DNA of 64,000 nt from Escherichia coli (GTDB lineage Bacteria; Pseudomonadota; Gammaproteobacteria; Enterobacterales; Enterobacteriaceae). A model generated the notes under the pieces. It was not told where the DNA came from, did no database searches, and saw only the letters and a program-made list of their open reading frames with translations. Position 1 is the stretch's first letter; every line of letters begins with the position of its first letter. The position numbers were made by a program, and so were the translations under genes. This document shows positions 14,866 to 54,705 of the stretch, piece by piece. The DNA is taken from assembly GCF_041886205.1 (NCBI RefSeq), contig NZ_CP169029.1. The stretch is one strand, 5' to 3'.

Positions 14866-14941
14866 TGGCTCCTCTGACTGGACTCGAACCAGTGACATAC
14901 GGATTAACAGTCCGCCGTTCTACCGACTGAACTACAGAGGA
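14866..14941 (-). tRNA. asnV: tRNA-Asn (GUU)
   Basis: Reverse complement equals TCCTCTGTAGTTCAGTCGGTAGAACGGCGGACTGTTAATCCGTATGTCACTGGTTCGAGTCCAGTCAGAGGAGCCA. Confidence 0.95.
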
Positions 14942-17274: not shown

Positions 17275-17350
17275 TGGCTCCTCTGACTGGACTCGAACCA
17301 GTGACATACGGATTAACAGTCCGCCGTTCTACCGACTGAACTACAGAGGA
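17275..17350 (-). tRNA. asnU: tRNA-Asn (GUU)
   Basis: Sequence identical to the other three tRNA-Asn copies. Confidence 0.95.
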
Positions 17351-19098: not shown

Positions 19099-19174
19099 TC
19101 CTCTGTAGTTCAGTCGGTAGAACGGCGGACTGTTAATCCGTATGTCACTGGTTCGAGTCCAGTCAGAGGAGCCA
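19099..19174 (+). tRNA. asnW: tRNA-Asn (GUU)
   Basis: 76-nt tRNA-Asn sequence ending ...GAGGAGCCA. Confidence 0.95.
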
Positions 19175-35283: not shown

Positions 35284-35359
35284 TGGCTCCTCTGACTGGA
35301 CTCGAACCAGTGACATACGGATTAACAGTCCGCCGTTCTACCGACTGAACTACAGAGGA
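35284..35359 (-). tRNA. asnT: tRNA-Asn (GUU)
   Basis: Identical 76-nt tRNA-Asn sequence. Confidence 0.95.
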
Positions 35360-36350: not shown

Positions 36351-36440
36351 GGAGAGATGCCGGAGCGGCTGAACGGACCGGTCTCGAAAACCGGAGTAGG
36401 GGCAACTCTACCGGGGGTTCAAATCCCCCTCTCTCCGCCA
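36351..36440 (+). tRNA. serU: tRNA-Ser (CGA)
   Basis: GGAGAGATGCCGGAGCGGCTGAACGGACCGGTCTCGAAAACCGG...CTCTCCGCCA; long variable arm, anticodon loop CUCGAAA. Confidence 0.93.
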
Positions 36441-43222: not shown

Positions 43223-44074
43223 TTAACCCGCGTAAGCTGCCAGCATTTCCTGCGCCGCCAGTTTACCCAACGCATTCGCTGCGAAAGGACTGTCGCCGGT
43301 GAGAACTTTACGGTCCTTATGTACTCGCCCGGTGATGTCGTCATTAATAATGTTCATGCCCATTTTCTTCAGCTCTTCGCCGAAGTACCAGGTGAGATGA
43401 CCCGGCATATAGCCTATCTCTGGCGTTTGTTTGTCTGCGGCGTCTGGGAATGCGCAAATGGAATAACCATTCAGTGGGTTATCGCCGTGGCGAAGCGCCA
43501 GAAAAGCCGCCGGGCCGTGGCAAAGGGAGATAACAAAACGGTCATTTTTGATTGCCCACTGTAAAGCAGCAGCCACGTCCTGGCTTTCTGGTAAACCAAT
43601 AAGTGCGCCATGACCACCAGGAACAAAGATTGCTGCATATTCGCTATCAGCGTTGAGGCTGGCGACAACATCCGCGAGTTTCTTCGGATTGCGGAACAAC
43701 GATTTATGCTGCTCAAAGAATGGCATTACTTTTTCATCTTTGTGCGGCATAGCCCAGTATTCAAACTTGGTCATCAGACCGGAAATGGTCGCCACTTCGA
43801 ATTCGAAACCTGCAGCATGGAGATGATACAACGGCAGCAACGTTTCAATCGGATGGTTACCAGTCGAGAACAGTTTTCCGTTATCGGTCGGCAAATAACG
43901 TTCGTCCGCGGCGATCACCAGAATTTTATGCTTACCGCGATACGGTTTTGGATAGTCCACGCCATCAAGATCAGAGACGGGACTGGTATATTGGCTAAGC
44001 GAATATTCTGAAGGGAAGAATGCATTATCTTCAGCAATATCGACCTGCGGATTTTTACTTGTTTGAACAGTCAT
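43223..44074 (-). CDS. hchA: Hsp31 glyoxalase / protein deglycase HchA
   Basis: 283 aa DJ-1/PfpI family with catalytic Cys in ...ISLCHGPAAF... Confidence 0.9.
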   Translation of the reverse strand: MTVQTSKNPQVDIAEDNAFFPSEYSLSQYTSPVSDLDGVDYPKPYRGKHKILVIAADERYLPTDNGKLFSTGNHPIETLLPLYHLHAAGFEFEVATISGLMTKFEYWAMPHKDEKVMPFFEQHKSLFRNPKKLADVVASLNADSEYAAIFVPGGHGALIGLPESQDVAAALQWAIKNDRFVISLCHGPAAFLALRHGDNPLNGYSICAFPDAADKQTPEIGYMPGHLTWYFGEELKKMGMNIINDDITGRVHKDRKVLTGDSPFAANALGKLAAQEMLAAYAG

Positions 44075-44585
44075 AGTGTATTCCTTATTGTTGCTTAGTT
44101 AGGGTAGTCACTATATTTGCGACTGAGCTGGTCGCTATTTTTAACCAGGCTGGAAAATTGAGTCAATATATCGAAAGCGGTAGTCGGCGGGTGTAAGTAT
44201 GTAATGATGATGCTGCACTGGTGTTGAATATTATTCACGCCAAATTTTCCTTATTGAGCAACGTCGTCGCAAGTGGCCTCAATGATTTTAGACCATTATC
44301 AGAGGTACGGGGCGGCGGGGAGAGATTTAGTGCTGTGGAATATTGTGGTGCTGATGAATATTTATATCCCGGATTGGTAGAGAAAAAGCTTATTTCATGC
44401 ACTATTTTTGCAAATATTTCTATATGGGAAGCGTGTTTGTTACGGGTTAATTCATCAGAATGTGCATTTGGGGTGTTGGCTGGAAGAGTCGCTGGTAGAT
44501 GTTATTGTGCCAGCAGGGGCAGGGTAAGGTACTGTATCGATATGCTTTGGCAATTGCATGTGCCGCAGATGGAGATGAAATGCCA

Positions 44586-44623
44586 ATAAAAAAGCCTGAG
44601 TTCGATGAGGGACGAACTCAGGC
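44586..44623 (-). terminator. Rho-independent terminator after the yedS-like porin gene
   Basis: GCCTGAGTTCG...CGAACTCAGGC hairpin followed by a T-run on the minus strand. Confidence 0.75.
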
Positions 44624-44666
44624 TAGTGTTAAGTTTTACAGTAACACGCCGCAGCGCGTTGGCTGA

Positions 44667-45881
44667 TTAGAACTGGTAGACTAAGCCCACAGCAACGATG
44701 TCATCGGTAGCGATGCCGTTGTTTGCGTAGAAGTCATCGTCGTTGTCCAGCAGGTTGATTTTGTAATCAACATAGGTGGACATGTTTTTGTTAAAGTAAT
44801 AGGTTGCACCAACCTCAACGTATTTAACCAGATCTTTATTGGTATAATGATAATTACCATTGTTGTACATTTCTTGACCACCTAAATCCTTACCTTTAGA
44901 TTGGAGGTAAGCAATTGAAGGACGCAGGCCGAAATCAAATTGGTACTGAGCAACAACTTCAAAGTTCTGAGTTTTGTTAGCGATACCACCGCCGCCAAGT
45001 TTCCCATCGGCTGAATGAGAGTCGCTGCTACCATAAGCGGTCATATTGCGAGTCTCTGCATACATTGCTGCTAAATATACATTGTTGGCATCGTATTTAG
45101 CACCAACAGTCCACGCTTCTGCAGTACCACCACCTGCATAGCTATTACCATAGAAATGATTGCCATCTCCATACCCACGAGCAGCTTGGTTATTGGAACG
45201 GTCAGAATTAGAGTAAGCAGCACCCAGACTTAAACCGAAGTCGAAGTCGTAGGAAGTAGACATACCGAAACCATCGCCATTTTCTTTAGCAAGGCTACGG
45301 CCATCTCCGCTGCCAGATCCTTCTTGGCCAAAGAGACTGTCACTGCCACTTTCATTATTACTCTGATATTGCAGCGCAAAGTTCAAGCCATCAACCTGAC
45401 CAAAGAAGCCATTGTTACGGTAGGTTGCAACACCGTTGGTACGACCGTTCATGAAATTGTCGGCACCAGCATAGGTATCGCCACCAAATTCTGGCAGCAT
45501 ATCGGTCCATGCTTCGATGTCATATACGACACCGTAGTTACGACCATAATCGAAAGTACCATTCTGACCAAAACCTAAACCTGCGAAAGCCAGACGGGTA
45601 GCAGAGTTATCTCCATCGCCTTCTGTGCCATTTGCTTGCAGGTTGTATTCCCACTGACCATAACCAGTGAACTGGTCAGCGATCTGAGTTTCACCTTTGA
45701 AACCGATACGGGCATATGACTTGTCGCCATCGCTGCCGGCATCATCAGAGAAGTAGTGCAGGCCCGCTACTTTTCCGTACAAATCCAGTTTATTACCATC
45801 TTTATTATAGATTTCAGCCGCATTTGCTGCGCCAGCAACTAATAACGCCGGGACCAGCATTGCCAGAACTTTTCTTTTCAT
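44667..45881 (-). CDS. yedS: OmpC/OmpF-family general porin, apparently intact (yedS-like)
   Basis: Signal peptide [22 protein letters not shown]-terminal [17 protein letters not shown] and C-terminal ...VGLVYQF typical of enterobacterial porins; Gly/Asp/Ser-rich loops; start placed at the internal ATG. Confidence 0.8.
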
Positions 45882-46192
45882 TATGTATTCCCTTGTGATT
45901 ATAATCTTCATGAATATATCAATAAGTGCCGTTATCCAAAAAAAAGCACATTTGGATACTATTCTATGAAGTTCATTTTATTTTAAGGATTACATGTAAC
46001 AAATGTATTTAAAAGATTTCAAAATGTTTCTAATCTATTTAATATAATTCAGGATTATGAATTCTAAATATAAATATTCATGAAAATTATAAATGTATAT
46101 CAATATGTTATGAGTTGAGCGGAAGCATAGGGGGTATCAATGATTGTTGCGCCAAACGGCTGGTGTGATCACGCGCACATTAATGAAGGCAT

Positions 46193-46285
46193 AAAAAAAA
46201 GCCGGCATCATGCCGGCCCAAAAAATATAAACAAGACGATAAAAGGCTAATAACGGAAGCATCATGACACAGAATAATAAAAAGG
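46193..46285 (-). ncRNA. rseX: Candidate small RNA (RseX-like), defined by a minus-strand intrinsic terminator
   Basis: GCCGGCATGATGCCGGC hairpin followed by T8 on the minus strand at about 46193-46217; no ORF upstream on that strand; 5' end not determined. Confidence 0.35.
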
Positions 46286-46429
46286 TATAATTGTAATCAG
46301 TGCTAATATATTGATTGAATGAATTAATAAAGCCGATCTCAAAGATAAATAAAATCGCTCAAAACGATTTTTCCTGTATTCACTGCCGTTGCGCAAAAAT
46401 TATCTATTTGTTCAAAAAATGAGTGAGTC

Positions 46430-46813
46430 TTGACTGGCTCATCCAATGTGGAAAAATGTGACTTTTATCACATAATAGTACTAAGTCTGAATTTTCCGGG
46501 TTATCTCAAAATGGAATACGGTTCGACAAAGATGGAAGAGAGACTCTCTCGCAGCCCTGGCGGCAAACTGGCTTTGTGGGCTTTCTATACATGGTGTGGC
46601 TATTTCGTCTGGGCAATGGCGCGTTACATCTGGGTGATGAGCCGGATCCCCGATGCCCCCGTGTCGGGATTTGAAAGCGATTTAGGTTCTACCGCGGGAA
46701 AGTGGTTAGGGGCACTGGTCGGCTTTTTATTTATGGCTCTGGTCGGGGCATTGTTAGGTAGCATTGCCTGGTACACTCGGCCTCGTCCCGCACGTAGCAG
46801 ACGCTATGAATAA
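46430..46813 (+). CDS. yedR: Inner membrane protein YedR (start codon uncertain)
   Basis: Small protein with two predicted TM helices; track start is TTG, an alternative GTG is 6 codons downstream. Confidence 0.75.
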   Translation: MTGSSNVEKCDFYHIIVLSLNFPGYLKMEYGSTKMEERLSRSPGGKLALWAFYTWCGYFVWAMARYIWVMSRIPDAPVSGFESDLGSTAGKWLGALVGFLFMALVGALLGSIAWYTRPRPARSRRYE

Positions 46814-46852
46814 AAACTGCTAAGGTTGCGACTCTTTGGCAACGGAGCGCGT

Positions 46853-47548
46853 ATGGACTTACAACACTGGCAGGCACAGTTCGAAAACTGGTTGAAAAAC
46901 CATCATCAGCACCAGGACGCGGCCCATGACGTGTGTCATTTTCGTCGCGTCTGGGCTACGGCACAGAAGCTGGCGGCAGATGATGACGTCGATATGCTGG
47001 TGATTTTAACCGCCTGTTATTTCCACGATATTGTGAGCCTGGCGAAAAATCATCCGCAACGGCAGCGTTCTTCAATCCTGGCGGCAGAAGAGACGCGTCG
47101 CCTGCTCCGTGAAGAGTTCGTGCAATTTCCGGCGGAGAAAATCGAGGCCGTTTGTCATGCCATTGCCGCTCACAGTTTCAGCGCGCAAATCGCCCCCTTA
47201 ACAACGGAAGCTAAAATCGTCCAGGATGCGGATCGGCTGGAAGCCCTGGGGGCGATTGGCCTGGCGCGCGTGTTTGCCGTTTCAGGGGCATTGGGCGTGG
47301 CGCTGTTTGATGGCGAAGATCCGTTCGCACAGTATCGCCCGCTTGATGATAAACGCTACGCGCTGGATCATTTCCAGACTAAGTTGCTGAAGCTACCGCA
47401 AACCATGCAAACCGCAAGAGGCAAGCAGCTGGCGCAGCACAACGCGCATTTTTTAGTCGAGTTTATGGCGAAGCTCAGTGCCGAACTGGCGGGGGAGAAT
47501 GAAGGTGTCGATCACAAGGTGATAGATGCGTTTTCACCCGCGGGCTGA
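46853..47548 (+). CDS. yedJ: HD-domain phosphohydrolase YedJ
   Basis: 231 aa from [14 protein letters not shown]...; HD motif (CYFHDIV). Confidence 0.85.
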
Positions 47549-47614
47549 GCGCGTGGCCCTAAATGGCTGTAATTATGTTAACCTGTCGGCCATCTCAGAT
47601 GGCCGGTTAAATCT

Positions 47615-49033
47615 ATGCAGGAAAATATATCAGTAACCGATTCATACAGCACCGGGAATGCCGCACAGGCAATGCTGGAGAAACTGCTGCAAATTTATGA
47701 TGTTAAAACGTTGGTGGCGCAGCTTAATGGTGTAGGTGAGAATCACTGGAGCGCGGCAATTTTAAAACGTGCGCTGGCGAATGACTCGGCATGGCACCGT
47801 TTAAGTGAGAAAGAGTTCGCCCATCTGCAAACGTTATTACCCAAACCACCGGCACATCATCCGCATTATGCGTTTCGCTTTATCGATCTATTCGCCGGAA
47901 TTGGCGGCATCCGTCGCGGTTTTGAATCGATTGGCGGACAGTGCGTGTTTACCAGCGAATGGAACAAACATGCGGTACGCACTTATAAAGCCAACCATTA
48001 TTGCGATCCGGCGACGCATCATTTTAATGAAGATATCCGCGACATCACCCTCAGCCATAAAGAAGGCGTGAGTGATGAGGCGGCGGCGGAACATATTCGT
48101 CAACACATTCCTGAACACGATGTTTTACTGGCCGGTTTCCCTTGTCAGCCATTTTCGCTGGCTGGCGTATCGAAAAAGAACTCGCTCGGGCGGGCGCACG
48201 GTTTTGCCTGCGATACCCAGGGCACGCTGTTTTTTGATGTGGTGCGCATTATCGACTCGCGTCGTCCGGCGATGTTTGTGCTCGAAAACGTCAAAAACCT
48301 GAAAAGCCATGACCAGGGTAAAACGTTCCGCATCATCATGCAGACGCTGGACGAACTGGGCTATGACGTGGCTGATGCAGAAGATAACGGGCCGGACGAT
48401 CCGAAAATCATCGATGGCAAACATTTTCTGCCGCAGCACCGTGAACGCATCGTGCTGGTGGGTTTTCGTCGCGATCTTAATCTGAAAGCCGATTTTACTC
48501 TGCGTGATATCAGCGAATGTTTCCCTGCACAGCGAGTGACGCTGGCGCAGCTGCTGGACCCGATGGTCGAGGCGAAATATATCCTGACGCCGGTGCTGTG
48601 GAAGTACCTCTATCGATATGCGAAAAAACATCAGGCGCGCGGTAACGGCTTCGGTTATGGAATGGTTTATCCGAACAATCCGCAAAGCGTCACCCGTACG
48701 CTGTCTGCGCGTTATTACAAAGATGGCGCGGAAATTTTAATCGATCGCGGCTGGGATATGGCCACGGGTGAGAAAGACTTTGACGATCCGCTGAATCAGC
48801 AACATCGTCCACGTCGGTTAACGCCTCGGGAATGCGCGCGCTTAATGGGTTTTGAAGCGCCGGGAGAAGCGAAATTCCGCATTCCGGTTTCGGACACTCA
48901 GGCCTATCGCCAGTTCGGTAACTCGGTGGTCGTGCCGGTCTTTGCCGCGGTGGCAAAACTGCTTGAGCCAAAAATCAAACAGGCGGTGGCGTTGCGTCAG
49001 CAAGAGGCACAACATGGCCGACGTTCACGATAA
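47615..49033 (+). CDS. dcm: DNA-cytosine C5-methyltransferase Dcm (CCWGG)
   Basis: 472 aa with motif I FAGIGG, catalytic PCQPFS, ENV motif. Confidence 0.93.
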
Positions 49034-54618: not shown

Positions 54619-54705
54619 AACACATCAGATTTCCTGGTGTAACGAATTTTTTAAGTGCTTCTTGCTTAAGCAAGTTTCATCCCGACCCCCTCAGGGTCGG
54701 GATTT
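54619..54705 (+). ncRNA. dsrA: DsrA small regulatory RNA
   Basis: AACACATCAGATTTCCTGGTGTAACGAATTTTTTAAGTGCTTCTTGCTTAAGCAAGTTTCATCCCGACCCCCTCAGGGTCGGGATTT matches my recollection of DsrA, including the terminator stem-loop. Confidence 0.9.

Follow-up and report, generated by a model that had tools for sequence, protein, structure and literature searches.

MicF and MicC depend on Hfq and act in trans, each masking the translation-initiation region of a major porin mRNA. Porin-regulating sRNAs can themselves be encoded beside another porin gene, as in the pairs micF-ompC, micC-ompN and ipeX-nmpC. RseX shares with MicF, MicC and IpeX that it regulates porins and is encoded next to a porin gene. 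It has no sequence relationship to them, however, and no Rfam match to those families was found at the locus described here. The arrangement differs as well: rseX stands in tandem upstream of the porin gene next to it, whereas micF and micC are divergent from theirs. Finally, RseX is under H-NS silencing and not under OmpR, Rob, SoxS or MarA.

The sigma-E-dependent RNAs MicA and RybB are functionally close. Like RseX, they repress ompA or ompC in an Hfq-dependent manner, and their overexpression relieves the need for sigma-E activation (PMC8313858). Unlike these two, RseX has no reported sigma-E dependence and an unrelated sequence, and its distribution is far narrower (Escherichia and Citrobacter amalonaticus in our core scan, see below). 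RseX was predicted computationally in 2002 (PMC8313858) and then isolated as a multicopy suppressor that makes RseP and sigma-E activation dispensable (Douchin et al. 2006, as cited in PMC8313858). The bypass is described as working by an Hfq-dependent lowering of ompA and ompC expression (Douchin 2006, as cited in PMC8313858 and PMC7648144), and rseX has been called a 91-nt RNA that downregulates OmpA and OmpC (PMC7648144). fimB and ihfB are also reported as direct targets, and the RseX-ompA binding site is stated to be experimentally unmapped (PMC8313858).

The rseX gene and its terminator

The window that we analysed is a stretch of 64 kb (64,000 nucleotides) of Escherichia coli DNA. It carries, in this order, yedS (44667..45881, minus strand), rseX (46193..46283, minus strand) and drpB, formerly yedR (46511..46813, plus strand). 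An earlier, sequence-only reading had noticed a GC hairpin followed by T8 on the minus strand between yedS and yedR, had found no protein-coding gene upstream of it on that strand, and had proposed that RseX lies here. The identification is supported by two matches. Bases 46193..46283 of the minus strand are identical to rseX (b4603) of K-12 MG1655 at all 91 positions; when the gene was aligned together with 60 bases on each side, the three substitutions all fell within the 120 flanking bases. In a scan of the whole window with Rfam 15, the family RF01401 (rseX, Hfq-binding RNA) matched 46194..46283 on the minus strand over model positions 1-94 of 94, with 97.7 bits against a gathering score of 50 bits. 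RseX maps here and on this strand, not elsewhere or on the opposite one. Rfam matches of RyhB, Esr41 and STnc430 at the same site were rejected, as all were far below their own gathering scores and driven by the generic terminator.

The features of the locus are as follows:

46193..46283, minus strand: rseX, 91-nt small regulatory RNA, whole transcript (identity to b4603 and full-length RF01401 match)
46290..46295, minus strand: putative -10 hexamer TACAAT, -12 to -7 of the annotated rseX start (from the sequence)
46246..46270, minus strand: weak hairpin near the 5' end in the Rfam consensus structure, RseX nt 14-38 (Rfam alignment, structure line)
46233..46254, minus strand: conserved single-stranded core and predicted seed, RseX nt 30-51, GUUAUUAGCCUUUUAUCGUCUU (invariance and best local duplexes)
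46220..46231, minus strand: U-rich stretch UUUAUAUUUUUU immediately before the terminator hairpin, RseX nt 53-64 (read from the sequence)
46199..46219, minus strand: intrinsic terminator hairpin GGGCCGGCA-UGA-UGCCGGCUU, RseX nt 65-85 (terminator scan, MFE and centroid folds)
46193..46200, minus strand: U8 tail of the terminator and RNA 3' end, expected Hfq proximal-face site (read from the sequence)

The gene is thus a known feature, an annotated sRNA gene of K-12. In NC_000913.3 it is listed as ncRNA rseX, b4603, "small regulatory RNA RseX", at 2033649..2033739, between drpB (yedR, b1963) and the yedS pseudogene (b4496) and on the strand of yedS. The gene order is the same in K-12 and the orientation opposite; the 91-nt sequence, the strand relative to yedS and drpB and the terminator are shared, so that the RNA itself shows no difference. 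Only the context differs, because the downstream yedS is a pseudogene in K-12 and intact in the window. The two matches establish what the locus is, but they should not be read as independent tests of function, because the K-12 sequence is very probably part of the RF01401 seed. For K-12 RseX, whose sequence is the same, published work has shown dependence on Hfq, repression of ompA and ompC, silencing by H-NS and a transcript of about 91 nt; RseX of this strain would be expected to behave in the same way. We regard it as nearly certain that the locus is rseX and that it works as set out below, with a weak, H-NS-silenced promoter, a 91-nt RNA and a predicted pairing to ompA and ompC.

RseX begins with a U-rich 5' end, followed by the weak hairpin (nt 14-38), the core (nt 30-51), which overlaps the 3' arm of that hairpin, the U-rich stretch (nt 53-64) and the terminator (nt 65-91). 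On the plus strand, 46193-46219 reads AAAAAAAAGCCGGCATCATGCCGGCCC; on the minus strand the same stretch is GGGCCGGCAUGAUGCCGGCUU followed by the U run, with eight U in all at 46193-46200. The terminator scan reports a stem of 9 pairs (6 of them G-C), a loop of 3 and a T-rich tail at 46219..46199 on the minus strand, and the MFE and centroid structures of 46190-46290, minus strand, both contain this hairpin (-14.6 kcal/mol for the centroid). The hairpin and tail of the sequence-only reading were therefore real, and its view of the flanking genes was correct too, with drpB on the plus strand and yedS downstream on the minus strand; its interval, 46193-46290, contained the whole RNA and 7 additional bases of promoter-proximal DNA. 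Only one of the 11 terminator-like sites in 44000-48500 has a longer stem than the rseX terminator, which ranks second; shuffles of the same region give 4.5 +/- 2.5 such sites. Past the hairpin on the plus-strand side follows CCAAAAAATAT, which contains no T run, so the terminator is unidirectional.

The 101-nt stretch 46190-46290 (minus strand) as a whole folds no better than its shuffles (z = -1.22), which leaves the hairpin as the only strong structure. The weak 5' hairpin consists largely of A-U and G-U pairs without covariation, and RNAalifold prefers a different weak fold. Across nine aligned sequences a compensatory change was found in 1 of 18 predicted pairs (covariation term +0.11). 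Because the paired columns barely vary, this value speaks neither for nor against the structure. A U-rich stretch together with a U-tailed terminator is the usual Hfq-binding module of Hfq-dependent sRNAs. By analogy, UUUAUAUUUUUU and the U-tailed terminator probably serve RseX in this capacity.

Putative promoter, H-NS silencing in K-12 and an overlapping plus-strand site

The minus-strand sequence leading up to the annotated rseX start is ...GCACTGATTACAATTATACC. The putative -10 hexamer is accompanied by a poor -35 (TCAATC or TTCAAT), and the rseX promoter does not appear in the list of the consensus promoter scan, which fits a weak, silenced promoter. The 629-bp intergenic region has 30.7% G+C, against 48.5% for the window. 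Judged by composition, such AT-rich DNA is of the kind that H-NS binds and would fit H-NS binding here. For K-12, a sigma-70 promoter of rseX is supported by 5' RACE (Douchin 2006, as cited in PMC8313858). In the literature searched, no TSS or 3'-end mapping data for rseX were found, for this strain or for K-12.

Expression data from K-12 agree with strong silencing. Northern blots of hns mutants show an RseX band of about 91 nt and a species of about 75 nt, and RNA-seq of hns/stpA mutants shows strong derepression of RseX; in wild-type K-12, several groups failed to detect the native RNA, which went without detection for almost two decades (all PMC8313858). The claim of the sequence-only reading that a short transcript must end at the hairpin has to be qualified for this reason: it agrees with the band of about 91 nt in the hns mutants, but H-NS silences the promoter, and the gene is almost silent in the wild type (PMC8313858). 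In our model, a weak sigma-70 promoter (putative -10 TACAAT, 46290-46295, minus strand) embedded in very AT-rich, H-NS/StpA-silenced DNA would start transcription at 46283, and the G+C-rich hairpin with its U8 at 46219-46193 would end it, yielding a 91-nt RNA.

We also observed a near-consensus, sigma-70-like promoter-like site on the plus strand (46264-46291, ATGACA-16-TATAAT). It agrees with the consensus at 11 of 12 positions, and neither strand of the 64-kb window has another site that reaches 11/12; a site of this quality arises in 5.8% of shuffles of the AT-rich intergenic region. The site points to drpB and overlaps both the putative rseX -10 and the gene's first 20 bases, and RseX nt 15-20 are the complement of its -35. 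Escherichia retains both hexamers (GATAAT in E. albertii), and C. amalonaticus has lost the -10. The mapped drpB promoter is a different one, at about 46448-46511 (PMC7648144). The site could be an overlapping divergent or antisense promoter, or it could be a by-product of AT-rich DNA and RseX conservation.

The mapped promoter of drpB lies after the old GTG-1 codon and ahead of the true start codon, ATG-22 (PMC7648144). In the window this zone extends from GTG-1 (46448) to ATG-22 (46511), and two overlapping promoter-like sites on the plus strand at 46430-46476 (TTGACT-16-AAAAAT preceded by TG, and TGGAAA-16-CATAAT) coincide with it. The ATG that experiments support is 21 bases upstream of the drpB start given by PGAP (46532, strain ECONIH5).

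Conserved core, predicted targets and alternative readings

A 161-base query consisting of rseX and its flanks matched 4,879 of 5,426 complete E. coli genomes; the other 547 (about 10%) had no rseX match. This is in line with a 27-genome study that classed rseX as variable within E. coli and Shigella owing to secondary losses (PMC3318445). An exact-pattern scan for the core, with one genome per species, returned six loci, in E. coli, E. albertii, E. whittamii, two unnamed Escherichia species and C. amalonaticus, all of which pass the Rfam gathering score (70.9-95.2 bits).

The alignment of nine sequences, all above the Rfam gathering score, covers 6 species-level groups. All nine, from E. coli to Citrobacter, contain CGTTATTAGCCTTTTATCGTC unchanged. 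The eight Escherichia sequences also agree throughout the terminator stem; the stem of C. amalonaticus has A-U in place of one G-C pair near its base and lacks the outermost pair. The U tail is T7 in the other eight sequences, against U8 in the window. Variation is found in the loop of the first hairpin, at the 5' end and in the flanks, a distribution that would fit selection on seed and terminator. Two allele types can be distinguished at 46255-46283 (minus strand) and in the tail. The window, K-12 and two listed O157:H7 records have UUUUUAUUAUUC...GAUGCUUCCG with a U8 tail, and most other aligned sequences have UUUUUUGUUUUC...GAUAACCCCG with U7; the types differ at the 5' end and in the first-hairpin loop, outside the invariant core.

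We searched for pairing between RseX and K-12 translation-initiation regions with a 22-nt windowed duplex search. RseX nt 37-51 pairs with ompA -23..-7 (-17.5 kcal/mol; 4 of 40 dinucleotide shuffles of RseX as good), and nt 30-44 pairs with ompC -15..+1 (-16.6 kcal/mol; 5 of 40 as good). These best local duplexes use the invariant core and cover the Shine-Dalgarno sequence of both mRNAs. The pairing is only modestly better than in the shuffled controls, and the bases assigned to it are predictions of this search. The windowed search replaced an unrestricted RNAduplex run against the whole leaders, which was uninformative: it returned duplexes of about 60-100 nt with large loops, and 28-89 of 300 shuffles were as good. 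According to the proposed mechanism, the U-rich stretch and the U-tailed terminator would bind Hfq, and the single-stranded core (nt 30-51) would pair across the Shine-Dalgarno regions of the ompA and ompC mRNAs. This pairing would block translation initiation and lower the amounts of both mRNAs.

The RNA might alternatively act mainly in cis, as a yedS leader. Read-through of the hairpin would then produce yedS mRNA, and the 91-nt RNA would be an attenuation product; such a role could coexist with a trans-acting one. The geometry is suitable, as rseX lies about 300 nt upstream of a full-length, same-strand porin gene in the window, where yedS is intact, and in 8 of 8 other loci. Between rseX and yedS no minus-strand promoter-like site rises above chance (two sites at 9/12; the whole scanned region gave 8 sites with 7.4 expected), and "RseX and surrounding areas" are reported to rise without H-NS (PMC8313858). 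Against this, the 9-pair, G+C-rich stem with U8 resembles an efficient terminator, and neither the RNA folds nor the nine-sequence alignment revealed an alternative anti-terminator fold. In the windowed search RseX showed no complementarity beyond chance to the yedS translation-initiation region (32 of 40 shuffles as good). Moreover, plasmid-borne RseX acts in trans in K-12, a strain whose yedS is a pseudogene (PMC8313858, PMC7648144). The strong terminator and this demonstrated trans action make it unlikely, in our view, that the leader role is the main one.

A still less probable reading is that rseX is a promoter-less or permanently silenced remnant, inert at its native level, and that its known effects are artefacts of overexpression. 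This would agree with the failure of several groups to detect native RseX in wild-type K-12 (PMC8313858) and with the variable presence of the gene described above (PMC3318445). But the transcript appears once H-NS is removed (PMC8313858). Core and terminator, moreover, stay unchanged between E. coli and Citrobacter although nearby bases and the porin next door differ widely, a pattern that points to purifying selection on the RNA. We therefore doubt strongly that the gene is a silent relic.

A small protein encoded by the 42-codon ORF at 46137..46265 (minus strand), which stands in the mechanical ORF list and has its AUG inside RseX, is effectively refuted. The ORF runs through the terminator to a stop codon 56 nt past the RNA 3' end, which would leave the 91-nt RNA without a stop codon. 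Its start ATG is not kept in C. amalonaticus (CATTAT), its first codons contain the most variable bases of rseX, and it is unannotated in all records inspected.

The adjacent porin gene and the setting of rseX

Of the two neighbours of our preferred trans-acting RNA, drpB is the more uniform one. The porin at homologous loci is 55-85% identical in amino acids to YedS of the window, whereas DrpB is 93-99% identical within Escherichia; the variable porin beside a conserved DrpB suggests, from sequence comparison, allelic replacement or diversifying selection. In all seven loci long enough to show drpB-yedJ, rseX is divergent from these genes. A published drawing shows the locus as yedS' <- rseX, drpB -> yedJ (PMC7648144). 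In the window, yedS (44667-45881, minus strand) encodes 404 aa with a full-length Porin_1 match (E = 2e-141), and PGAP names it "porin OmpC". Some E. coli strains carry an IS1 element inside yedS.

Just past the yedS stop codon we noticed a strong terminator-like hairpin of 12 pairs on the minus strand (44624..44593). The gap between hchA and yedS (about 590 bp, 44050-44650) shows an unusually strong positive GC skew of +0.29 to +0.33 on the plus strand at about 42% G+C, and 44050-44650 has no Rfam match at the gathering threshold.

Other RNA genes of the window include a full-length DsrA sRNA gene (54619-54705, plus strand; Rfam RF00014, 102.5 bits) and five tRNA genes: 14866-14941, 17275-17350 and 35284-35359 on the minus strand, and 19099-19174 and 36351-36440 on the plus strand. 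Four of these are tRNA-Asn(GTT) with identical Rfam scores, and one is tRNA-Ser(CGA). tRNA-Asn and tRNA-Ser genes lie a few kb from rseX in the loci of C. amalonaticus and Escherichia sp. E1V33 too. Several asn-tRNA genes, with asnT, asnU and asnV named, are described for this region of E. coli (PMC7648144).

PGAP annotated no feature under rseX in any of the 25 matches listed, nor in the three non-K-12 records that we inspected; among the inspected records, only the curated K-12 record annotates the gene. In the non-K-12 E. coli inspected, this omission leaves rseX unseen in routine annotation. The orphan terminator from which the sequence-only reading had argued did correctly locate a real sRNA.

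We tentatively propose, with considerable doubt, that a single horizontally mobile, H-NS-silenced "porin-swap" cassette may comprise rseX together with the porin gene downstream of it. If true, the idea would be a modest extension, because the linkage of rseX and yedS has been noted before and similar sRNA-porin pairs are known (micF-ompC and micC-ompN), and it would be relevant only where yedS is intact, as in this strain. There, the rseX-porin unit might also be subject to antisense or divergent control from the promoter-like site on the plus strand (46264-46291). With rseX upstream of an intact yedS, this strain offers a setting in which a cis link between both genes could be tested.
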